From: Chlamydiota bacterium
GTDB lineage: Bacteria > Auribacterota > JACPWU01
DNA length: 32,000 bases
Assembly: GCA_016196885.1 (NCBI GenBank)
Contig: JACPWU010000009.1
Location: 8,400-40,399 of the forward strand
Direction of reading: 5' to 3'
Part shown: in pieces, positions 6,573 to 31,962 of the stretch
How positions within the stretch are numbered: position 1 is the stretch's first letter
How the letters are laid out: the number at the start of each line of letters is the position of its first letter
The notes under the pieces: generated by a model
The model's input: the letters and a program-made list of their open reading frames with translations, nothing else
Told to the model about the DNA's origin: nothing
Databases searched by the model: none
Translations under genes and position numbers: made by a program

Positions 6573-7537
6573 ATGGAAGAAGCAAGGAGAGATTATCCAA
6601 TTCATTTTTTGTTCTCTTTCTTTCCCTTTTCCTTTCATGCCTTTCTCTTTCCCACTCTGCTGTTGTCTCTCGCGTGGTTGCAGAAGTCAATGGAGAAATC
6701 ATCACTTCTCAAGAGTTGGATCAAGTGCTTCGGCCTCTTTACGCAAAATACAAAAGGGCCTATTCGGGAGAAGAACTGAATAAACATATGGAGGAGGCCA
6801 GGCGAGACGCCCTTTCTCAATTGATTGAGCGCAAATTGGTTCTTCAAGAAGCTAAAAAGCAAAACATTCAAATTGAAGACAAGAAAGTGGAGGAGCGTTT
6901 TCAGGCTGTTAAATCCAAGTTTGATTCGGACGATGAATTTTATTATGCCTTGGAGAAAGAGGGGATGACAACGGACCAGTTGAGAGAAAATATTCGAGAG
7001 CAGCTTTTGGTCAAGACGCTTTCTCGGCAAGAGATCTTGAGGTCTATCCATGTTCGTCCCAAGGAGGTCAGCGATTATTACAGTCAAAATACTCAAAGAT
7101 TTTCAGAACCTGAAATGGTTCAAATGGGCCAGATCTTGGTCAAAAAAGGAGATCATGCCGAGGCCGCCAAGCAAAAAATAGAGGAGGCTCAAAAAAAGTT
7201 GAAAGGGGGGACTTCTTTTGAGGCGGTGGCCAAAGAATATTCTGAAGATCCTTACGCGAAGGAGGGAGGAGACATGCCCTTTTTCGCCAAAGGCAATTTG
7301 ATGAAGGAAATTGAAGATGAGGCCTTTTCAATGGAGGTGGGCCAAACGAGTGAAACCATCGAAAGCGATCTAGGGTATCATATTTTAACTTTGAAAGCCC
7401 GTAAGCAGGATCGGGTGAAGCCCCTTTCTGAAGTTTATTCTGAGATTGAGGAAGAACTTTATCAGCAGAAGGTCGAAGCATTCCACGAGAAATGGGTGGA
7501 GAAATTGAAGAAAAAGGCCCATGTGGTGGTGTATTAA
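6569..7537 (+). CDS. SurA/PrsA-like periplasmic peptidyl-prolyl isomerase (SurA N-domain + one parvulin domain)
   Basis: Signal peptide-like N-terminus (FFVLFLSLFLSCLSLSHS). Parvulin/PpiC rotamase motifs (GGDMPFF...ESDLGYHIL). ATGA overlap with the mfd stop and AAGGAGG upstream. Confidence 0.8.
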   Translation: MNGRSKERLSNSFFVLFLSLFLSCLSLSHSAVVSRVVAEVNGEIITSQELDQVLRPLYAKYKRAYSGEELNKHMEEARRDALSQLIERKLVLQEAKKQNIQIEDKKVEERFQAVKSKFDSDDEFYYALEKEGMTTDQLRENIREQLLVKTLSRQEILRSIHVRPKEVSDYYSQNTQRFSEPEMVQMGQILVKKGDHAEAAKQKIEEAQKKLKGGTSFEAVAKEYSEDPYAKEGGDMPFFAKGNLMKEIEDEAFSMEVGQTSETIESDLGYHILTLKARKQDRVKPLSEVYSEIEEELYQQKVEAFHEKWVEKLKKKAHVVVY

Positions 7538-7540
7538 AAA

Positions 7541-7616
7541 CAGTCGTGAGTCGTGAGGGATGAGTCGTGAGTAAAAAATAACTCCTTTAAAACTCACGAC
7601 CCACGACCCACAACTG
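7541..7616. repeat. Heptamer-armed palindromic element, GTCGTGA family, full copy
   Basis: Left arm is CA GTCGTGA GTCGTGA GGGATGA GTCGTGA GT (7541-7572). Core is AAAAAATAACTCCTTTAAAAC (7573-7593). Right arm is TCACGAC CCACGAC CCACAACTG (7594-7616). It lies between the surA-like stop and the pdxA ATG. Confidence 0.8.
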
Positions 7617-7621
7617 TCTTT

Positions 7622-10969: not shown

Positions 10970-10980
10970 GAGGTATTGAT

Positions 10981-11265
10981 ATGAAAGTTGAAATGAACAT
11001 TGATGATGTGGCAAAGCTTGCCCGCTTAAAATTAAGCGCTGAAGAACGGGAAAAATTTTCATCTCAAATGTCCGATATTCTTTCCTACGTTCAGAAATTG
11101 AATGCCGTAGATACGACGCATGTTCAGGCGGCTGATCATGTTGAAGCGGTTCAAAATGTCACGCGACCAGATGAGGTAAAACCCTCTCTGGATCCAGACT
11201 CTTTTTTGAAACATGCACCTCTCGGCCGGGATCAATTTTTCATTGTCCCTCAGGTGATTGAGTGA
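10981..11265 (+). CDS. gatC: Glu/Asp-tRNA amidotransferase subunit C
   Basis: GatC-like N-terminus (DDVAKLARLKLSAEEREKFSSQMSDILSYVQKLN). The track start is GTG 10966, which overlaps ksgA. ATG 10981 is preceded by GAGAGG. Confidence 0.85.
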   Translation: MKVEMNIDDVAKLARLKLSAEEREKFSSQMSDILSYVQKLNAVDTTHVQAADHVEAVQNVTRPDEVKPSLDPDSFLKHAPLGRDQFFIVPQVIE

Positions 11266-11283
11266 TTTTTTAAGGAAAAGCGA

Positions 11284-12744
11284 ATGAGTGAATCGTTGAT
11301 GGATTTAACATTGCATGAATTGTCTGAGCTAATGCGCGCTCGAAAAATTTCCTCTCTGGAGGTCATGCAGGCAAAGCTTGCGCGTTTAAAAGAGAGAGAA
11401 CCTCAAATTCATGCCTATATTCGCTGGGATGAAAAAGCTGCAATAGAAGAGGCGCGCCAACGGGACAATGTCCAAGATCATCAAGGATCTTTATGGGGGC
11501 TTCCTATTGCCAATAAAGACATTATTTGTGTCGAAGGGGTTGAGACTTCTTGCGCTTCTAAAATTCTTTCAGGATATATTCCTCCCTACAATGCGACAGT
11601 GGTTGAACGGTTGCGGGGAGAAGGGGCTATTTTATTTGGCAATACGAATATGGATGAGTTTGCCATGGGGTCTTCGACAGAGACGTCCCACTTTGGGGTG
11701 ACCCGAAATCCCTGGGATTTAACTCGGACGCCCGGAGGATCGAGCGGGGGTTCTGCGGCTGCAGTGGCCGGAGGGCTTGCAATTGCTGCTTTGGGAACAG
11801 ACACGGGGGGCTCCATTCGTCAGCCGGCGGCTCTTTGTGGTTGTGTCGGACTCAAGCCGACTTATGGACGTGTGTCTCGCTATGGATTGATTGCCTTTGC
11901 CTCGAGTTTGGATCAAATTGGACCCATCACTCAAGATGTGGAAGATGCGGCTCTTCTTTTAGAGATTTTAGCGGGACATGATTCTAAGGATTCGACCTCT
12001 CTCAAAGTGGAAGTGCCTCGATACCGAGAGCATTTAAAAAAGGGAATTCGAGACATGAAGCTTGGCCTTCCCAAAGAATATTTTATTTCGGGTTTAGATC
12101 CTCAGGTGAAGGTGGCGATTGATGAAGCGATAAAAGTTTATACAAATTTGGGGGTGGAAGTTGTGGAATGTCAGTTGCCTTATACCGAATATGCGGTGGC
12201 CACTTATTATGTTTTGGCGACGGCTCAAGCCAGCTCAAATTTAGCTCGTTATGATGGCGTTCAATATGGTTATCGTGCTCCAAACTTTTCTAATCTGGTT
12301 GACATGTATTTTGAAACACGCTCGCTTGGATTTGGGCCTGAAGTCAAACGCAGAATTATTTTGGGAACGTATGCTTTAAGTTCGGGTTATTATGATGCCT
12401 ATTATTTAAAAGCCCAAAAAATGAGAACGCTCATTCGGCAAGATTTTGAAGAGGCTTTTAAAAAATGCGATGCGATTTTGACACCGACTTCTCCTTCGTG
12501 TGCTTTTAAAATTGGGGAAAGAATGAATGATCCTTTGACCATGTATCTTTCCGATATTTTTACGATTTCGGCTAATTTGGCGGGGATTCCTGGGATTTCG
12601 ATTCCTTGCGGTTTTTCGAAAGAGGGTTTGCCTGTAGGGCTTCAGATTTTGGGAAAACATTTTGATGAGGCGACGCTTCTAAGGACTGCCTATGCATTTG
12701 AACAGGCGACAGATCATCATAAAAGAAAGCCCGTTGTAAGATAG
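11284..12744 (+). CDS. gatA: Glu/Asp-tRNA amidotransferase subunit A
   Basis: Amidase signature [12 protein letters not shown] and [12 protein letters not shown]. 486 aa. Confidence 0.95.
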
Positions 12745-12756
12745 AAAAGGTATTTT

Positions 12757-14181
12757 ATGGATTACGAACCCGTCATAGGTCTAGAAGTTCATGTTCAGCT
12801 CAAAACAGCGTCCAAGCTTTTTTGCGGCTGTTCGACGAAGTTTGGAGCGCTTCCTAACGCGCAGGTGTGTCCGGTCTGTTTAGGCTATCCCGGGGTGTTG
12901 CCTGTTTTAAATGAGAAGGCTCTGACCCTTGCGGTTATGGCGGGTCTAGCTATGGGGTCGACGGTTGCTCTCTACAGTAAATTTGATCGTAAAAATTATT
13001 TTTATCCCGATTTACCCAAGGCTTATCAAGTTTCACAATATGATGAGCCTATTTGTCTCGGAGGAAAAATTGACATTGAGGTAGAAGGGACACGCAAAGA
13101 GATTCGTTTGACGCGCATTCATTTAGAAGAGGATGCGGGGAAATCCATGCATTTCAAAGGCGACACAGGTGTGGATTACAATCGTACTGGAATCCCTTTG
13201 ATTGAAATTGTATCAGAGCCCGATTTAAGGTCTCCTCAGGAGGCCTATCAATACTTAAAAGAGCTGAAAACGATTTTAGAATATTTGGATGTGAGTGATT
13301 GCAACATGGAAGAGGGGAGTCTTCGCTGTGATGCGAATGTTTCTTTGAGGCCGGTAGGTGAGAAAAAAATGGGGACGCGAGCGGAAATCAAAAATCTGAA
13401 TTCTTTTCACAATGTTGAAAAAGCAATTACATATGAAATTGAACGCCAAAAAGAACTTTTGTCTCGGGGTGAGCGTATTGTTCAGGAGACTCGGCTTTGG
13501 AATGCGGATGAAAGCTTTACGCGTTCGATGCGAAGCAAAGAAGCCGCCCATGATTATCGTTATTTCCCTGAACCCGATTTAGTTCCGATCGTCTTTTCTG
13601 CTAAAGAGATTGAATCCGTTCGAGTGAGTTTACCAGAGCTTGCCCAGAGGCGCAAAGAGCGCTTTATGAAGGATTTTGCTTTGACGGCCTATGACGCGGA
13701 GGTTTTGACGGCCCAAAAAGACCTTGCCGATTTTTTTGAGCGCTGCCTAAAATATTCTAAAAATGCAAAGGCGATTAGCAATTGGATGATGGGCGATTTA
13801 ATGAGAGAATTGAAGTTGAAAGATTTGGGAATAGCCCAGTCTCCTATGTCCCCGGAGCATATTGCAGGATTGATTGAACTGATGGATCAAGGAAAAATCA
13901 GCGGAAAAATGGCCAAAGATGTTTTTCTTGAAATGTTTGGCACAGGAAAATCTGCGCAAGAGATTGTGAGCGCGAAGGGATTGAGTCAGCTTTCAGATTC
14001 CTCTCAAATTGAGGGTGTGGTCAAAAAAGTGATTCAGGAAAATCCACCTTCGGTTCAGGATTACCGAAATGGAAAGAAGAATGCTCTGAGTTATTTGGTA
14101 GGACAAGTGATGAAGGCCACTCAGGGTCGTGCAAATCCGAAGATGGTGAATGAGTTGTTGGTGAAAGAATTGGAAAAATAG
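12757..14181 (+). CDS. gatB: Glu/Asp-tRNA amidotransferase subunit B
   Basis: YEPVIGLEVHVQL N-terminus, CPVCLGYPGVLP, and a C-terminal GatB/YqeY domain. The TAG stop is the first nucleotides of the downstream heptamer array. Confidence 0.95.
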   Translation: MDYEPVIGLEVHVQLKTASKLFCGCSTKFGALPNAQVCPVCLGYPGVLPVLNEKALTLAVMAGLAMGSTVALYSKFDRKNYFYPDLPKAYQVSQYDEPICLGGKIDIEVEGTRKEIRLTRIHLEEDAGKSMHFKGDTGVDYNRTGIPLIEIVSEPDLRSPQEAYQYLKELKTILEYLDVSDCNMEEGSLRCDANVSLRPVGEKKMGTRAEIKNLNSFHNVEKAITYEIERQKELLSRGERIVQETRLWNADESFTRSMRSKEAAHDYRYFPEPDLVPIVFSAKEIESVRVSLPELAQRRKERFMKDFALTAYDAEVLTAQKDLADFFERCLKYSKNAKAISNWMMGDLMRELKLKDLGIAQSPMSPEHIAGLIELMDQGKISGKMAKDVFLEMFGTGKSAQEIVSAKGLSQLSDSSQIEGVVKKVIQENPPSVQDYRNGKKNALSYLVGQVMKATQGRANPKMVNELLVKELEK

Positions 14182-14261
14182 CGTACAGCGGATAGCGTTC
14201 AGCGTACAGGAAAAACACAATTCCTGATAAACTGAACGCTGTACGCTGATCGCTGAACGCT
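14180..14261. repeat. Heptamer-armed palindromic element, AGCGTNN family, full copy (type specimen)
   Basis: Left arm is AGCGTAC AGCGGAT AGCGTTC AGCGTAC AG (14180-14209). Core is GAAAAACACAATTCCTGATAAA (14210-14231). Right arm is CTGAACG CTGTACG CTGATCG CTGAACG CT (14232-14261). It is followed by AGGAG and the accD ATG. Confidence 0.85.
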
Positions 14262-14273
14262 AGGAGTTTTATC

Positions 14274-19870: not shown

Positions 19871-19882
19871 AGAAGTAACCCC

Positions 19883-19943
19883 CCTAGCCCAGCAAGGAAG
19901 GCTGCACTGCCACTGGCAGTGCAGCCTTCCTTGCTGGGCTAGG
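19883..19943. repeat. 61-bp perfect palindrome (30-nt arms) in the macA-macB intercistronic gap
   Basis: CCTAGCCCAGCAAGGAAGGCTGCACTGCCA-C-TGGCAGTGCAGCCTTCCTTGCTGGGCTAGG. The arms are exact reverse complements, checked base by base. Confidence 0.9.
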
Positions 19944-19949
19944 TAAAAA

Positions 19950-20018
19950 AACATCTACTACCGCGGTCGGCTTTGCATTGCCACTGGCAATGCAGCCTCC
20001 CTTGCTGGGTTGGGGGAG
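19950..20018 (+). repeat. Left ~68-bp inverted repeat flanking the macB genes
   Basis: AACATCTACTACCGCGGTCGGCT | TTGCATTGCCACTGGCAATGCA | GCCTCCCTTGCTGGGTTGGGGGAG. The 23-nt outer block is an exact reverse complement of 22066-22088. Confidence 0.85.
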
Positions 20019-20041
20019 TTATTTCATTATCCTTGTCATTT

Positions 20042-20797
20042 ATGTCTGAAACCATAATCTTAAATTCCATTGAAAAAAAACTTGAGAGACCTCAAATCTC
20101 TTCCCCTATTCTCTGTGAATTAATCGCTGTTTCAAAAGAGTATTCACTCGATTCTGGAAATGTGATGGCTCTCAAAGACATCCATTTTCGCCTTTACGAA
20201 AAAGATTTTTTATCCATTTTAGGACCGAGTGGCTCTGGGAAAAGTACCTTGCTTCACATCCTGGGTCTTTTGTCAAATCCATCCAAAGGAAGAATTTTCT
20301 TTAAGGGACAGGATGTTTCTTGTTTGAGCGAATGGGCTTTGGCCCGATTGAGAGGCCAAAAAATCGGTTTCGTTTTCCAGGCCTTTCATTTGCTTCCCTC
20401 TCTCAATGCCTTGGAAAATGTAGCGCTTCCTCTCATCTATCAACGGGTCAGTGGGGGCCAGAGGAAGAGAAAGGCACTCGAGGCTCTTGAAAAAGTGGGG
20501 CTTGCAAGGCGTTCGCACCATTTTCCCAGGCAGTTATCAGGGGGAGAGTCTCAGCGAGTGGCAATTGCGAGGGCCTTGGTGAGTCAACCTTCTTTAATTT
20601 TGGCGGATGAGCCCACTGGAAATTTAGACACTCAGATGGGAAAAGAAATTTTGGGAATGCTCAAAATGTTGAATGAAGAAGGCAAAACGGTCGTGGTTGT
20701 GACACATGATGTTCGGATTGCGAATGAAGCCAATCGGATTCTCTTTTTGAAAGATGGGAAAGTAGAGAGTTTGAGTTCTAGAGGTGAGGCGAGATGA
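20042..20797 (+). CDS. MacB/LolD-type ABC transporter ATP-binding protein
   Basis: Walker A (GPSGSGKSTLL), signature (LSGGESQRVAIARAL), Walker B (ILADEPTGNLD). The track start 19973 lies inside the inverted repeat, so ATG 20042 is used. Confidence 0.9.
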   Translation: MSETIILNSIEKKLERPQISSPILCELIAVSKEYSLDSGNVMALKDIHFRLYEKDFLSILGPSGSGKSTLLHILGLLSNPSKGRIFFKGQDVSCLSEWALARLRGQKIGFVFQAFHLLPSLNALENVALPLIYQRVSGGQRKRKALEALEKVGLARRSHHFPRQLSGGESQRVAIARALVSQPSLILADEPTGNLDTQMGKEILGMLKMLNEEGKTVVVVTHDVRIANEANRILFLKDGKVESLSSRGEAR

Positions 20798-22005
20798 AAT
20801 CCCACCTGATTTTTTACGATCATTTAAAAACGGCTTTTCAAATGGTTTCGACGCATCGGCTGAGATCCCTTTTGAGTGTGGTGGGGATTGTCTTTGGGGT
20901 TTTGACCTTGATGGTGACGCTGTCTATTGGAGAGGGGACACGTCGAAAAATCATGAAGACGATTGAGGCGATGGGATCCAATTTAATTTACGTCTCTTCG
21001 CATGCAGGGATGAGTCAGGACGCGGGTTTCGAATACATTCCATTGACTGAAGCAGAATGTCAGCGTTTCAAAGAGGTGAAAGGAATAGAGGCCTATGCCC
21101 CCATTTTAAGCTCTGCCTTTTTGATGCAGGCCTCCACCTTTCAGCAGGTCATTCCCGTGGAGGGGACGACGCCTTCTTATCAAAGGGTGAGGGATTTGGC
21201 TCTCGATCAAGGCCGGTTTCTCGCGGATGAGGATGTGTTAAAGGAATCACGCGGGGTGGTGATTGGAAAAGATCTCGCCCAATTTCTTTTTCCTTTTCAG
21301 AATCCCTTGAACCAAAAAGTTCACCTTTGGGATGAAAGTTTTAAAGTGGTCGGCGTCCTTCAGAAAAAGGGGCGGACTTTTGGAGTGGATTTTGACCGCG
21401 AGGTTTTAATGCCTCTTTCGACTCTACAGCAAATTCAGGGAAAAAGAGGGGAGGTGCAGGGGGCTTGGATTCGGACCCCCCGCGGGGATTTGACGAAGCA
21501 GGTGATGAGACAGATGGAAATTTTACTTTCCCGTAAAGATGTAGAGATTTGGGATCAGGAGGCACTTCTTTCGAAGAAGGATCGCATCACGCGGGCCTTT
21601 AAATGGTCTTTGGGATCCATTGCCTTGGTGAGTTTATTGATAGGAGGCATCGGGGTCATGAATGTCCTTTTGGTCTCTGTGGCAGAGCGGATTCGTGAAA
21701 TGGGGCTTCGAAAGGCTGTGGGTGCGACCTCCAGAGATATTCTTTTTCAATTGATATTTGAGTCTGTCTTTTTAACTCTGACCGGGTCTTGTGTGGGCAT
21801 CTTGTTGGGGCTTGTCACGGGAGATTTCATCGCCTGGCTTTTGAATACCCTGCTTCCGAGCACAGAAAAGTGGGAAGCGGTTTTTTCTTGGAGTTCAATC
21901 GGGGTTGCATTTCATTTTTCTCTATGGGTGGGACTTCTTTTTGGTCTTTATCCTGCCTGGAAGGCGTCCAGGCTGGATCCGTGTGAGGCGTTGACGTATT
22001 TTTAA
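20794..22005 (+). CDS. MacB-type ABC transporter permease (periplasmic MacB_PCD-like domain + FtsX domain)
   Basis: 403 aa. N-terminal TM, a ~230-aa periplasmic domain and a C-terminal FtsX-like 3-TM bundle (ERIREMGLRKAVGAT). ATGA overlap with the ATPase gene. Confidence 0.9.
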   Translation: MKSHLIFYDHLKTAFQMVSTHRLRSLLSVVGIVFGVLTLMVTLSIGEGTRRKIMKTIEAMGSNLIYVSSHAGMSQDAGFEYIPLTEAECQRFKEVKGIEAYAPILSSAFLMQASTFQQVIPVEGTTPSYQRVRDLALDQGRFLADEDVLKESRGVVIGKDLAQFLFPFQNPLNQKVHLWDESFKVVGVLQKKGRTFGVDFDREVLMPLSTLQQIQGKRGEVQGAWIRTPRGDLTKQVMRQMEILLSRKDVEIWDQEALLSKKDRITRAFKWSLGSIALVSLLIGGIGVMNVLLVSVAERIREMGLRKAVGATSRDILFQLIFESVFLTLTGSCVGILLGLVTGDFIAWLLNTLLPSTEKWEAVFSWSSIGVAFHFSLWVGLLFGLYPAWKASRLDPCEALTYF

Positions 22006-22020
22006 AGTAATGGGTCCTGT

Positions 22021-22088
22021 CCCTCCTCACCCAGCAAGGAAGGCGTTTCTTCCAGTGGAAGAAACAGCCGACCGCGGTAGTAGATGTT
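22021..22088 (-). repeat. Right ~68-bp inverted repeat flanking the macB genes
   Basis: The reverse complement reads AACATCTACTACCGCGGTCGGCT | GTTTCTTCCACTGGAAGAAAC | GCCTTCCTTGCTGGGTGAGGAGGG. It has the same three-part layout as 19950-20018, with a different but still self-complementary middle hairpin. Confidence 0.85.
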
Positions 22089-22212
22089 GTTTTCCATTTA
22101 ACGGTCGACGGCATCGGTCTCGAAATAGTTTTTGATCATGATTCTTGGCGTAAGTCTCGACCTGCTGGCGCTCGATGGGGGACCCCCAGTCGGGCCACCC
22201 ACTACTTTTCAT
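22027..22212 (-). CDS. Small hypothetical ORF (61 aa), possibly a truncated gene; C-terminal third is translated repeat
   Basis: Its ATG overlaps the TGA of the upstream DUF1570-like gene (ATGA on the minus strand), which suggests translational coupling. From about residue 40 onward the frame runs through the inverted repeat at 22021-22088. I recognise no family. Confidence 0.25.
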   Translation of the reverse strand: MKSSGWPDWGSPIERQQVETYAKNHDQKLFRDRCRRPLNGKQHLLPRSAVSSTGRNAFLAG

Positions 22213-23442: not shown

Positions 23443-24672
23443 ATGGACGCTTTTGAAACGACAAATATTTATTTCCACCGTGCTGCAGATCTTTTGGGTT
23501 TGAATGAAAGGGTTCGTACCCTCCTTCTCAATCCTTCCCGTGAGGTGAAGGTTTCCATTCCCATTGAGCGCGAGGACGGGACCCTGGCCCATTTTGTGGG
23601 TTATCGAATTCAACACAACAATGCGCGAGGCCCCTTTAAAGGGGGGTTGCGTTACCATCATCAAGTGAATGCTGAAGAGGTGAAGGGCTTGGCCTCTCTG
23701 ATGACTTGGAAAACGGGGGTGGTGGATGTTCCCTTCGGAGGAGCGAAGGGTGGCATTGCCTGTCATCCCCAAGATTTGAGCGAACATGATTTGGAAATTT
23801 TGACACGGCGATTCGTTCAGCAGATTCATGAATTCATAGGACCCACAGTGGATATTCCGGCGCCCGATGTGAATACCAACGCCCAGATCATGGCCTGGAT
23901 CATGGATGAATATTCGCGCATGAAGGGATATGCCCCGGCGGTGGTGACGGGAAAACCTTTAGCGCTCGGGGGCTCGGCGGGGCGTGAGGATGCCACGGGA
24001 CGGGGTTGTGCGATTGTGATTGAAAATTTTTTCAAGAGTCAGGGAAAAACTTTGAAGGGATTAAGATTTGCCCTTCAGGGATTTGGCAATGTCGGCTCTC
24101 ATCTGGCTCATTTCCTGGATGAAAAAGGGGCCCTTGTCATTGGGGTCTCAGACTCTCATGGGGGGGTGATGCGAGGGGAGGGGCTTGACATTCCCCGCTT
24201 GATAGAATATCAAAGGCGCGAGAAAACCGTGGTGGGTTTTCCACAGGGAAATTCTATCAGCAATGAAGAACTTTTGGTGATGGATTGTGATTGCCTGGCG
24301 CCTGCCGCGTTGGGGGAGGTGTTGACGCGAGAAAATGCAAGGCATGTGAAGGCGCGGGTGATTTTGGAGGCAGCCAATGCGCCGACCACCCCGGAGGCCG
24401 ATGAGGTTTTTGAAAAAAAAGGCAGGGTGGTCATCCCTGATATTTTGGCGAATGCCGGCGGCGTGGTGGTTTCTTATTTTGAGTGGGTTCAGAATCTTCA
24501 GAGTTTTAAATGGACTTTGGAACAAGTGGTGGAGGAACTCACGCGCGTGATGACGAAGGCTTATGAGTCCGTGGTGAACATTGCGACGACCAAAAAGGTA
24601 CCCTTGAGAACGGCGGCGTTTGCATTGGGTGTGGGAAGAGTCGCAAAGGCGATGACTTTGAGGGGATTGTAA
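23443..24672 (+). CDS. gdhA: Glutamate dehydrogenase (Glu/Leu/Phe/Val dehydrogenase family)
   Basis: Catalytic VPFGGAKGGI motif and a GFGNVG Rossmann dinucleotide motif. The start is taken at ATG 23443 (AGGAG upstream) rather than 23422, which lies inside the leader hairpin. Confidence 0.92.
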   Translation: MDAFETTNIYFHRAADLLGLNERVRTLLLNPSREVKVSIPIEREDGTLAHFVGYRIQHNNARGPFKGGLRYHHQVNAEEVKGLASLMTWKTGVVDVPFGGAKGGIACHPQDLSEHDLEILTRRFVQQIHEFIGPTVDIPAPDVNTNAQIMAWIMDEYSRMKGYAPAVVTGKPLALGGSAGREDATGRGCAIVIENFFKSQGKTLKGLRFALQGFGNVGSHLAHFLDEKGALVIGVSDSHGGVMRGEGLDIPRLIEYQRREKTVVGFPQGNSISNEELLVMDCDCLAPAALGEVLTRENARHVKARVILEAANAPTTPEADEVFEKKGRVVIPDILANAGGVVVSYFEWVQNLQSFKWTLEQVVEELTRVMTKAYESVVNIATTKKVPLRTAAFALGVGRVAKAMTLRGL

Positions 24673-24673
24673 A

Positions 24674-24753
24674 GACAGTCCACAGTCCAGGGTCGGCAGT
24701 CCACAGAAAAAAATTCCTTATAAACTGTTGACTATGGACTATCAACTATGGAC
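24674..24753. repeat. Heptamer-armed palindromic element, CAGTCCA/CTATGGA family, full copy
   Basis: Left arm is GA CAGTCCA CAGTCCA GGGTCGG CAGTCCA CAG. Core is AAAAAAATTCCTTATAAA. Right arm is CTGTTGA CTATGGA CTATCAA CTATGGA C. It lies between gdh and the cNMP-binding gene. Confidence 0.85.
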
Positions 24754-24770
24754 TTCTTTTAGAGGAGATC

Positions 24771-25290: not shown

Positions 25291-25370
25291 AAAATTGAGA
25301 ATGAATGATTGAAAATTGATAATGAAAGTGAAATGTCAATTTTCCATTCTCAATTATCAACTCTTTTTTT
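25291..25370. repeat. Heptamer-armed palindrome (ATTGANA/TCAATTN family) with T7 tail; terminator-like
   Basis: ATTGAGAATG (25294-25303) pairs with CATTCTCAAT (25345-25354). GAAAATTGA (25311-25319) pairs with TCAATTTTC (25336-25344), leaving one unpaired heptamer. The right arm is followed by TTTTTTT (25364-25370). Confidence 0.7.
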
Positions 25371-25390
25371 ATGACGTTAGAGACTTCGTG

Positions 25391-26233
25391 ATGGATAGAA
25401 AAATTCCTTTAAACATTTATAAAATATCCAGTCCCTGTGTGGGGACCGTGCTGGAGAACAAGAAACTCACGCAGCCGTCCAGCCCCAATGACACGCACCA
25501 TGTGGTGGTGGGCTTGGAAGGAAGCTCCTATACCTATTTAGAGGGGCAGAGTGCAGGGGTTCTTCCGGCTGGAATGGATGAAAAGGGAAAACCGCATGCG
25601 GTTCGTCTTTACTCCATTGCTTCTCATCGCAGCGGAGAAAAAGGGTATCCCTTTTCCCTCTCTTTGTGTGTGAAGCGGGTGGTCTATCAAAATCCTCAAA
25701 CGGGCCAGGAGAAAAGGGGCGTGGGTTCGAATTATACTTGCGATTTAAAGACAGGGGACTCTGTCAAACTCACGGGGCCTGTCGGAAATCGTTTTCTTTT
25801 ACCGGAGAATTTTCAAGAACATCATTTTATTTTTTTGGCCACGGGGACGGGGATTGCCCCTTTTCGAGGGATGCTCGCACATCTTTTTCAAAACCATTTC
25901 AAAAATGAAATTTGGCTTATTTTTGGAACTCCTTATAAGACGGACGTGTTGTATGAAGAGGAGTTTGGGCAATATCGATCCCATCCAAATTTTCATTTTG
26001 TGACTGCGATCAGTCGGGAAGAGAAAAATAAAGATGGTTCAAAGGTTTACGTGCAGCATCGTATCCTTGAACATCAAGCAAAATTAATTCCCTTGCTCAG
26101 AGAGACAAACACCCTCCTTTACATCTGTGGGCTGAAAGGGATGGAAAAAGGGATTCACGAGGCGATGCAAGTGATGTGCCCTCAAGAACTTTATGAGCAA
26201 GTGAGGAAGAGGATTTTGATCGAAGTCTATTAA
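25391..26233 (+). CDS. Plant-type ferredoxin-NADP+ reductase
   Basis: FAD-binding RLYSIAS, NADP-binding ATGTGIAPF, and a C-terminal aromatic residue (...IEVY stop). The track start 25316 reads through the repeat, so ATG 25391 is used. Confidence 0.88.
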   Translation: MDRKIPLNIYKISSPCVGTVLENKKLTQPSSPNDTHHVVVGLEGSSYTYLEGQSAGVLPAGMDEKGKPHAVRLYSIASHRSGEKGYPFSLSLCVKRVVYQNPQTGQEKRGVGSNYTCDLKTGDSVKLTGPVGNRFLLPENFQEHHFIFLATGTGIAPFRGMLAHLFQNHFKNEIWLIFGTPYKTDVLYEEEFGQYRSHPNFHFVTAISREEKNKDGSKVYVQHRILEHQAKLIPLLRETNTLLYICGLKGMEKGIHEAMQVMCPQELYEQVRKRILIEVY

Positions 26234-26254
26234 TTTGTTTCGAATTTCGGATTA

Positions 26255-26383
26255 GGCATATGCACTTGATTCCCCTCAGATAGCAAGAATTTGTAGTCGC
26301 CCCATTTATGGGGCAGCCTTGTGCCCCTTGCATGGATTGCCCGATGAATCGGGCGACTACTAGGGGAATCAAGTGCATATGCC
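26255..26383. mobile_element. MITE-like 129-bp element with perfect 22-bp terminal inverted repeats
   Basis: GGCATATGCACTTGATTCCCCT (26255-26276) is the exact reverse complement of AGGGGAATCAAGTGCATATGCC (26362-26383). One nucleotide outside each TIR lies a 10-bp direct repeat, ATTTCGGATT (26244-26253 and 26385-26394). There is no coding capacity. Confidence 0.7.
26293..26360 (+). repeat. REP doublet (REPIN/BIME-like), GTAG-type, with 24-nt spacer, nested in the MITE-like element
   Basis: GTAGTCGCCCCATTTATGGGGC (26293-26314), a 24-nt spacer AGCCTTGTGCCCCTTGCATGGATT, then GCCCGATGAATCGGGCGACTAC (26339-26360), which is the reverse complement of GTAGTCGCCCGATTCATCGGGC. Confidence 0.75.
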
Positions 26384-26437
26384 CATTTCGGATTTCGAGT
26401 TTCGTGTTTTTTTTGAACGTATAGCAGAAATGAATTT

Positions 26438-27082
26438 ATGCCATCCCCTTTAGGACATGCTTTGGCGAGTGCTATTTTACACAAGAAAAAGGTGCCGGGA
26501 TCTTGGTCGGGTGATTGGAAACGACTTCTTTTTCACATGTTCTGCGGCATGTCGCCCGATTTAGATTTTTTACCGGGCCTTTTTTTAGGAAATATAAGTC
26601 TTTATCATCATGGTTTTACACATAGTATTTTAGGTGCAGGCCTGATGGGCGCTTTTTTTTGGGTGGTTTATGGGTTGTGGCGGCGGGTTTGGAAGGTGAA
26701 CGATTTATTTTTTCTCATGGGGCTTGTCTCCCTGCATCCCCTCATGGATGTTTTGGCGCTGGATACAGCCTCTCCCTATGGTTGCCCTTTGGGATATCCT
26801 TTTTCCAAGGTTTCTGTGATGAGCCCCTATGTTTTTTTTCAGGATATTCATCGGGCTGGTTTGCGTAATTTTTTATTTGGAAAAAATAATCTTTTGGCTT
26901 TTGGAATTGAAGCAATTTTTTTTCTGCCCCTGATGATGGCACTTTCTTATCGAGAGGGACGAAGTCGAGGGGCATGGTTTATAGCAGTATTGATTTCTTT
27001 CTTTGTGACGGCTACGGCTTTGCGTGTGGTTAAGTGGGTGGATGGACGGGCATTGTTTATGAGCGTGTGGAGTCAAATGTGA
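26438..27082 (+). CDS. Membrane-bound metal-dependent hydrolase (YdjM/DUF457-like)
   Basis: 214 aa. N-terminal PLGHALAS histidine motif, several TM segments, and further conserved His residues (HHGFTHS). Its stop overlaps the probable prpD GTG start. Confidence 0.65.
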   Translation: MPSPLGHALASAILHKKKVPGSWSGDWKRLLFHMFCGMSPDLDFLPGLFLGNISLYHHGFTHSILGAGLMGAFFWVVYGLWRRVWKVNDLFFLMGLVSLHPLMDVLALDTASPYGCPLGYPFSKVSVMSPYVFFQDIHRAGLRNFLFGKNNLLAFGIEAIFFLPLMMALSYREGRSRGAWFIAVLISFFVTATALRVVKWVDGRALFMSVWSQM

Positions 27083-30464: not shown

Positions 30465-30469
30465 AAAAA

Positions 30470-30547
30470 CAATCGATAGTCCATAGTCGACAGTCGATCG
30501 TTTTAAGCGGTTTTTTATCTATGGACTGTGGACCATTGACTGTTGAC
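30470..30547. repeat. Heptamer-armed palindromic element, TAGTCNA/CTNTGGA family, core in inverted orientation
   Basis: Left arm is CAATCGA TAGTCCA TAGTCGA CAGTCGA TCG. Core is TTTTAAGCGGTTTTTTAT, whose reverse complement is ATAAAAAACCGCTTAAAA. Right arm is CTATGGA CTGTGGA CCATTGA CTGTTGA C. It shares the exact heptamers CTATGGA and CTGTTGA with 24674-24753. Confidence 0.85.
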
Positions 30548-30564
30548 TTTCAATTGTTATCACC

Positions 30565-31917: not shown

Positions 31918-31962
31918 GTAGTCGCCCGATTCATCGGGCAGCCCCATAAATGGGGCGACTAC
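31918..31962 (-). repeat. REP doublet (REPIN-like), GTAG-type, 1-nt spacer; inverted relative to the 26.3-kb copy
   Basis: GTAGTCGCCCGATTCATCGGGC-A-GCCCCATAAATGGGGCGACTAC. Its reverse complement equals 26293-26360 minus 23 nt of spacer. Confidence 0.8.

Follow-up and report, generated by a model that had tools for sequence, protein, structure and literature searches.

A probable IS1595-family miniature element with a REP doublet core, inserted in a heptamer array downstream of an FNR-like gene

How many separate events does it take for three kinds of small repeat to come to lie inside one another? The question is raised by a 32,000-nucleotide stretch of bacterial DNA (the whole of which is called the window below), that is, the last 32 kb of contig JACOUD010000075.1 of the metagenome-assembled genome (MAG) GCA_016178005.1, with the window end being the contig end. 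Between a gene for an FNR-like oxidoreductase (25322-26233, + strand, stop codon 26231-26233) and ydjM (26438-27082, +), a short array of TTTCGNN heptamers is interrupted by a palindromic element, which in turn contains two inverted repetitive extragenic palindromic (REP) units; the region reads TAA-tttg-TTTCGAA-TTTCGGA-T, TA-GGCATATGCACTTGATTCCCCT ... AGGGGAATCAAGTGCATATGCC-CA, TTTCGGA-T-TTCGAG-TTTCGTG-T8. A first-pass annotation, made from the letters of the window, had described this arrangement as a three-level nesting. We conclude, with a probability of roughly 85 %, that positions 26253-26385 hold a miniature inverted-repeat transposable element (MITE), that is, a non-autonomous derivative of an insertion sequence (IS) of the IS1595 family, with the REP doublet as its core. 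In all likelihood only one insertion event took place at this locus, the apparent multi-level nesting being a pre-assembled chimera that landed once.

The element is bounded by a perfect 22-nt inverted repeat, GGCATATGCACTTGATTCCCCT (26255-26276, +, and 26362-26383, -), which found no match in 100 shuffles. This repeat had been taken as the terminal inverted repeat (TIR) of a 129-bp element and is present as stated, but comparison with other copies puts the conserved terminus at 24 nt (TA+GGCAT..., including an outer TA), and the outer TA reads CA at the right end of the window copy. Only spurious open reading frames (ORFs) that run in from flanking sequence cross the resulting 133 bp. As DNA the element folds into a single hairpin (-44.6 kcal/mol, z = -10.8), and as RNA with its flanks it is predicted to reach -95.4 kcal/mol (z = -10.1), with the two REP units pairing with each other. 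Rfam gave nothing at its gathering threshold across the whole window and, at E <= 1 for the locus, only a chance match to a miRNA hairpin.

Outside the termini, the first-pass annotation had seen a 10-bp direct repeat at a distance of one nucleotide on either side. The duplication is real, but it is 8 bp long and abuts the termini: the 10-mer is the 8-mer TTTCGGAT lengthened by a single base at each end, one from the TIR and one from the array. The accompanying worry that the periodicity of the array could mimic a target-site duplication can be laid to rest, because an 8-bp repeat is incompatible with a 7-bp period. The two 8-mers shift the phase of the array by +1, and removal of the element together with one TTTCGGAT restores an in-phase TTTCGAA TTTCGGA TTTCGAG TTTCGTG; this reconstructed empty site has no significant structure (z = 0.13). 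The same boundary offset is seen at two other loci, with a perfect 8-bp duplication (TTAGTAAA) at L003 and a 7/8 match (TTTGATAA/TTTGATCA) at L007. Eight base pairs are also the usual length of the flanking duplication in the IS1595 family (PMC8101967), and the target duplications of ISApl4 are A/T-rich (PMC12561309). Since the inner termini and the duplication are perfect, they indicate that the insertion at the FNR-ydjM locus was probably a recent event. An IS1595 transposase, supplied in trans, would have bound both termini, cut the target with an 8-bp stagger and joined the element to it, and gap repair would then have produced the TTTCGGAT duplication. The insertion junction is present in the NCBI MAG contig as well as in Logan contigs of three sequencing runs, which rules out an assembly artefact as the origin of the element.

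The 22-mer terminus was found in six metagenome contigs; a terminus unique to this locus would have spoken for a local palindrome. An exact search of species-representative genomes, a set that does not include this MAG, gave 0 matches, a plasmid collection held no match to the MITE, and viral contigs held no match to the TIR. A complete MITE copy of 135 bp lies in L003 and partial copies lie at contig ends in L004 and L008, all with different flanks, so that the four copies including that of the window occupy four unrelated sites; their hosts range from 45 to 55 % GC.

The same termini also bound full-length insertion sequences. In L005 (positions 424-1437), a 1,014-bp IS is delimited by TAGGC[G/A]TATGCACTTGATTCCCCT and encodes a 304-aa ORF that matches PF12760 (Zn_ribbon_IS1595, E = 6e-12), PF12762 (DDE_Tnp_IS1595, 5e-29) and the NCBIfam model IS1595 (5e-58). 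Further copies of 1,017 bp (L123-L128) have one transposase, 83 % identical to that of L005, and an exact right terminus. The inner 22 nt of the MITE are identical to the right ends of L005 and L123-L128 and differ from the left ends by one or two mismatches. Metagenomes contain extremely many homologues of the L005-type transposase, for the most part on contigs of about 1.0-1.3 kb; among annotated proteins, it comes closest to IS1595-family transposases from plasmids of Methylocella and Legionella (57 %) and to ISRama1 (50 %). In the search for an autonomous IS in the source samples, the closest transposase cluster was traced to an unrelated run. The suspicion of MITE-like mobile DNA voiced in the first-pass annotation has been borne out by the IS1595-family termini, by a target-site duplication that is genuine and by the copies at unrelated loci.

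A second, independent route to non-autonomous elements exists in this IS clade: the 309 bp at L007 (1389-1697) are what an internal deletion has left of a related IS1595 element, with about 50 N-terminal and about 40 C-terminal transposase codons retained. The right outer flanks of L123-L126, L007 and L005 are alike in several copies (TTTTATCTTTCA, TTTGATAGTTCA, CTTTGTTTTTCA, TTTGATCATTCA), which points either to a preference for T-rich targets or to a terminus that is longer and degenerate; L126 has flanks that are inverted copies of one another.

The Logan contigs also bear on copy number. In all three runs the left side stops at 26279/26280 and the contig on the ydjM side starts at 26354, which equals 26384 minus 30, position 26384 being the single copy-specific base of the right terminus. 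Assuming that the Logan assemblies were built with k = 31, we infer that these breaks arose where a k = 31 graph collapsed a repeat of 31 nt or more, and that the MITE is multi-copy in the source community.

The core of the element belongs to a family of its own. Two REP doublets were found in the 32 kb, both intergenic, and the first-pass annotation had correctly recognised one of the GTAG type inside the element (26293-26360) and a second one standing alone (31918-31962). The two 22-nt arms of the solo doublet are identical to those of the nested one (44/44), GTAGTCGCCC occurs four times against 0.42 expected, and each doublet folds as a single hairpin of two inverted units, as expected of a REPIN (a hairpin-forming REP doublet). 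The units are separated by a linker of 24 nt in the window MITE, of 12 nt in that of L003 and of 1 nt in the solo doublet.

A degenerate unit, GTAGTYGCCCSATTYATSGGGC, was searched against representative genomes and matched more than 113 genomic stretches, in Poribacteria (many per genome), Nitrospirae, Nitrospinota, Elusimicrobia, Chloroflexi, Ignavibacteria, Stahlbacteria, Omnitrophota, Actinomycetota, Brocadiales and others; 46 of 126 family matches in other genomes were doublets. The unit is composed of GTAG, 2 nt, a stem of 6-7 bp and an apex of the form AT-T-N-AT, with GTAG and the loop-proximal AT/AT invariant among 20 variants. Across these variants, 96 % of the stem cells are paired and five of seven pairs show compensatory changes, a score reached by 0 of 500 shuffles.

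A regular expression for the motif of REP-associated tyrosine transposases (RAYTs) gave no match, and the genes were found by phmmer with an E. coli RayT sequence, which led to L037 and L091. In L037, three REPs in tandem lie on the 5' side of a Y1_Tnp ORF, 17 nt before the RAYT start, and the homologues of this ORF form a clade of proteins of 137-149 aa that are 55-70 % identical to the L037 RAYT and are named RayT by JGI. REP clusters, including exact 22-mers, lie on both sides of the RAYT (PF01797) gene in every locus looked up: a Planctomycetes MAG (L131-L133), a LacPavin MAG (L134, with several REP matches too), an Actinobacteria MAG (L135) and a 5.8-Mb genome (L136). Judged by its sequence features, the inner doublet is a genuine REP doublet, the hallmarks of a REP/REPtron system being present for the family in relatives. 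A single 22-nt REP consensus, GTAGTTGCCCGATTYATCGGGC, and its RAYT clade are common to many phyla (L010-L122, L131-L136, L037), namely Planctomycetota, Chloroflexota, Actinomycetota, Poribacteria, Elusimicrobiota and Nitrospirota as well as the bacterium of the PVC superphylum (Planctomycetes-Verrucomicrobia-Chlamydiae) studied here. This suggests horizontal spread, which is unexpected under mainly vertical inheritance. A supposed RAYT gene beside inverted REP pairs in L024 turned out to encode a PhyH-like dioxygenase, and the only match of a literature sequence search, the Prochlorococcus Yfr1 terminator, has a 16-nt hairpin in common by coincidence.

Did the doublet enter the MITE here, or did it arrive inside it? 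All four sequenced MITE copies (window, L003, L004 and L008) carry it at the same internal position and in the same orientation; neither the two REP unit types nor their order vary, nor does their place relative to an asymmetric landmark, GCAAGAA. The window MITE differs from the L003-type copies by three indels and a compensated pair (T/A versus C/G) in the outer REP stem. Because position, order and orientation are the same in all copies, the doublet was in the MITE before the MITE spread; it would have been captured once, in the founder of the family, and would have travelled with it since. The idea of three successive local nesting events is hence not upheld: the copies carry the doublet identically placed, and one insertion is left at this locus. 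The check for copies without an internal doublet, which the first-pass annotation had proposed, found none, as all recovered MITE copies carry it.

An improbable though still noteworthy alternative is a true three-step nesting on the spot, in which an array was entered by a REP-less MITE and this resident MITE was then entered by a RAYT-driven doublet. The REP family is plausibly mobile, and the identity of the nested arms with those of the solo doublet at 31918-31962 would fit such a history, the more so as both carry GTAGTC/GACTAC, unlike the GTAGTT/AACTAC of L003, L004 and L008. Against this stand the MITE copies from at least two communities, whose REP arrangement relative to GCAAGAA is the same and for which independent insertion at the same spot is unlikely, and the lack of a REP-less copy among those recovered. 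The arm identity of nested and solo doublets points to gene conversion in this genome or to a recent ancestor common to both.

Several observations weigh against a MITE of IS1595 descent that reached this site with its doublet already in place, and they are gathered here. The match of the nested arms with the solo doublet, and not with the compensated pair of the L003, L004 and L008 MITEs, is one of them. The sequence common to MITE and IS is limited to the termini; with homology in the termini alone, the alignment gives an interior that was apparently not derived by IS deletion, and a simple deletion origin of the MITE, which MITE status does not need, is to all appearances ruled out. Most full-length IS copies (L005, L123-L125) have no clean 8-bp duplication, for which chimeric repeat assembly may be responsible. 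No second MITE copy, IS1595 transposase gene or RAYT gene was found in this genome, of which one contig was examined. The multi-copy state in the source community depends on k = 31, and the other copies could belong to other organisms of the community. Finally, no empty-site allele was found among contigs encoding the FNR-like or the YdjM protein, all of which enter the MITE.

REP doublets in larger inverted-repeat elements are a recurring pattern (10 of 46 doublets scored). Different lineages have different outer inverted repeats, for example, AGGACTTACGCACT in Poribacteria (L025, L070, L086, L108, L122), GAAAATAGCC in Chloroflexi (L028, L105) and AATGCGGTTTAGATAAGC in Elusimicrobia (L051, L092, L114, L119). 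Viral or proviral IMG/VR contigs contain the REP unit once each (L142, L143, L144) and the MITE terminus in none. It is conceivable, albeit on balance unlikely, that REP doublets, which are considered to pass only vertically alongside a single-copy RAYT, repeatedly become the core of cut/copy-and-paste MITEs or of other inverted-repeat wrappers and hitch-hike between genomes. If true, this would help to explain the near-unchanged cross-phylum REP consensus and RAYT clade as well as the solo-nested arm identity, and the element would be a dual-substrate chimera linking DDE and HUH/Y1 transposition systems.

These same wrappers lend some colour to a reading to which we give very little credence, in which all 133 bp of the palindrome form an extended REPIN that a RAYT would move via single-stranded hairpins, its outer arms merely resembling IS ends; the entire element does fold as one long hairpin with the REP units paired, and in Poribacteria, Chloroflexi and Elusimicrobia outer inverted repeats likewise enclose doublets of this family. 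Y1 transposition of the IS200/IS605 type makes no target duplication. Two independent sites, however, have exact 8-bp duplications and a third has 7/8, and the outer arms agree with the inner terminus of a DDE-transposase IS over 22/22 nt, or 23/24 with the outer TA counted. The weakest alternative, a locus-specific structural or regulatory palindrome that is not mobile (a terminator or mRNA stabiliser of the FNR-like gene), can draw on the position 19 nt past the FNR-like stop codon, the very stable predicted RNA hairpin and the eight-T run after the array, but it is next to impossible given that the same element lies beside unrelated genes in other organisms, that the T-run begins 21 nt beyond the right end of the element, that there is no Rfam match beyond chance, and that no terminator-like or promoter-like site was called (terminator scan range 26000-26600).

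The preferred reading, a ready-made MITE inserted once, still leaves room for an effect on its neighbours. If the FNR-like gene and ydjM are co-transcribed, the insertion would place a very stable hairpin between them, and by analogy with REP elements and bacterial interspersed mosaic elements (BIMEs) this may affect the stability of the 3' end of the FNR-like mRNA or read-through into ydjM.

The interrupted array itself was correctly seen in the first-pass annotation, with TTTCGNN units at 26238, 26245, 26386, 26393 and 26400 and three tandem pairs against 0.19 expected. What did not hold up is its role as a landing pad. The window contains ten period-7 arrays (Tandem Repeats Finder), and since arrays fill about 13-20 % of the roughly 2.3 kb of intergenic DNA, a random intergenic insertion lands in one about once in six times; a MITE in an array therefore needs no preference, and chance is sufficient. 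None of the three other MITE insertion sites (L003, L004, L008) is in an array, and none of the IS ends that were inspected falls inside one either, a single end (L006) having an array-like run some 30 nt away. The element would thus have met the array by chance, arrays being a large share of the spacer DNA. A cross-phylum link between REP units and heptamer arrays, seen by eye, was dropped as only marginally above random (126-130 REP sites): 7 of 130 REP units in other genomes lie within 100 nt of a heptamer array, against a random mean of 2.3 and a random maximum of 7.

Arrays of another build are found elsewhere in the window. In five or six spacers of the intergenic map (60-164, 1760-1845, 7536-7621, 14170-14273, 24670-24765 and 30465-30560), a pair of inverted heptamer arrays encloses an A-rich loop of the type AAAAAA..TTCCT.ATAAA, and most of the spacers that separate co-directional genes are of this build. 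Their 7-mers are spacer-specific (AGCGTNN, AGTCGTG, CAGTCNN, TTCGTNN), the arms differing between loci and being complementary within a locus, and they form hairpins in which 6 bp alternate with one mismatch at a period of 7 nt (z = -4.1 to -7.2, but -2.3 for 1760-1845). We know of no described family with such a spacer architecture.

Features of the insertion locus and the solo REP doublet (positions in the window)
Feature	Position	Strand	Remarks
Left part of array: TTTCGAA, TTTCGGA, T	26238-26252	+	Starts 5 nt past the FNR-like stop codon
Left copy of 8-bp target-site duplication, TTTCGGAT	26245-26252		Directly abuts the terminus
Putative MITE, complete	26253-26385		133 bp with 24-nt termini (129 bp by the 22-nt definition); non-coding; one long hairpin
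Left terminal inverted repeat, TAGGCATATGCACTTGATTCCCCT	26253-26276	+	Matches the end of IS1595-family insertion sequences
Left internal spacer, CAGATAGCAAGAATTT	26277-26292	+	GCAAGAA in common with the L003 copy; unlike IS subterminal sequence
REP unit, GTAGTCGCCCCATTTATGGGGC	26293-26314	+	GTAG head and hairpin
Linker between REP units	26315-26338	+	24 nt; contains degenerate half-REP TGCCCCTTGCATGG
REP unit, GTAGTCGCCCGATTCATCGGGC	26339-26360	-	Inverted relative to the first unit
Right terminal inverted repeat	26362-26385	-	Inner 22 nt perfect; outermost dinucleotide CA (+ strand), not TA
Right copy of 8-bp target-site duplication, TTTCGGAT	26386-26393		Directly abuts the terminus
Right part of array: TTTCGGA TTTCGAG TTTCGTG and eight T (26407-26414)	26386-26414	+	
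Solo REP doublet (REPIN-like)	31918-31962		Opposite orientation; 1-nt linker; 38 nt from the contig end

The gene surroundings had been called proteobacteria-like, which does not fit the host: homologues of Mfd place it in the PVC superphylum, near Chlamydiota. Relatives reach 55-58 % identity, and the nearest matches that bear a name are a Chlamydiota MAG (48 %), Candidatus Theseobacter exili (46 %) and a Verrucomicrobiae MAG (46 %). A protein comparison found no close relative of the window proteins among all fetched loci. Public assemblies (Logan or NCBI contigs) end at window positions 7572, 24735, 26280, 26354 and 32000, that is, in heptamer arrays, in the MITE interior and in the neighbourhood of the solo REP doublet; small repeats limit the contiguity of the MAG. 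Another apparent spacer, of 314 nt, upstream of ORFs of 486 aa (11284-12744) and 474 aa (12757-14181) holds a small unlisted ORF (10980-11270), which to judge by its translation may be gatC; should it be a gene, the stretch would not count as intergenic. In addition, the two ABC-transporter genes at 20042-22005 (ABC_tran and MacB/FtsX) are bracketed by inverted composite repeats of about 100 nt (19871-20041 and 22006-22100), which include a perfect 30+30-nt palindrome (19883-19943) with a diverged second copy (19974-20014) and a third copy (22021-22061), as well as a 28-nt segment whose occurrences at 19945-19972 and 22066-22093 are 96 % complementary.

Viewed as a whole, a new IS1595-family MITE with a REPIN core is fairly ordinary mobile DNA with a conventional mechanism. 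Its value lies in being a clean, datable case of small bacterial repeats combining, in which a DDE-transposon MITE has a REPIN as cargo and both termini and duplication are perfect, and in illustrating that apparent multi-level nesting can be one insertion of a ready-made chimera. The 24-nt terminus and the 22-nt REP consensus can be used to mask or classify repeats in MAGs, where they break contigs. Larger questions are raised by a genome whose spacers are largely inverted heptamer arrays that form periodically mismatched hairpins, and by a cross-phylum REP/RAYT family that sits uneasily with the view of purely vertical REPIN-RAYT inheritance.

Among known systems, the small dispersed repeats of Nostoc punctiforme offer a parallel, which according to Elhai et al. 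(2008, Genome Res 18:1484) are reportedly nested in tandem heptamers and MITEs. There as here, small palindromic repeats, MITEs and heptamer arrays lie inside one another in intergenic DNA; unlike there, no preference for arrays is seen here, the doublet is of the RAYT type and measures 45-68 nt as compared to 21-27 nt for the dispersed repeats, and the host is a PVC bacterium. Intergenic heptamer direct repeats are further known as TAACTGA arrays from Beggiatoaceae, cyanobacteria and Bacteroidetes (PMC4679880). The arrays of the window resemble them in having two to six tandem 7-nt units, in being intergenic and near gene ends, and in occurring also outside cyanobacteria, whereas each array here has its own heptamer and most form inverted hairpin pairs with a mismatch every 7 nt. 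In this respect the TTTCGNN array that received the MITE, a solo array, is unlike most in the window.

A physical tie between a DDE-type element and REP sequences is also known from insertion sequences with REP/BIME sequences as their targets (Tobes and Pareja 2006, PMC1525189, as far as cited in PMC3116915). In the cited account the IS lies inside a REP cluster, whereas here the REP doublet lies within the transposon termini and is duplicated along with them. Closest in mechanism are the MITEs derived from the IS1595 family, for whose definition Siguier, Gagnevin and Chandler (2009) are cited in PMC12561309 and PMC8101967. Like these, the present element is short, non-coding and intergenic, its termini are those of an IS with a single transposase of the Zn-ribbon and DDE_Tnp_IS1595 type, and its 8-bp duplication leans towards A/T. 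It differs in that the partner IS is new, with at most 57 % amino acid identity to annotated plasmid-borne IS1595 transposases, and in that the core is a REP doublet instead of IS remnants, only the termini being common with the IS.

Systems of REP sequences and RAYTs are said to have been treated by Nunvar in 2010. Their REPIN-RAYT form (REPtrons) has been covered by Bertels and Rainey (2011, PMC3116915), Bertels (2017, PMC5581495) and Quentin (2018, PMC6006769). The doublet described here has the 5' GTAG head, the compensated hairpin of 6-7 bp and the inverted doublets that fold together in common with them, and clusters of its family flank single small Y1 transposase genes on either side. 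Unlike in those systems, it lies inside the termini of a DDE transposon and would be able to move as the cargo of a different system, and whereas REPIN-RAYT systems are described as mostly vertical and lineage-specific, the 22-nt consensus of this family is nearly exact across phyla.

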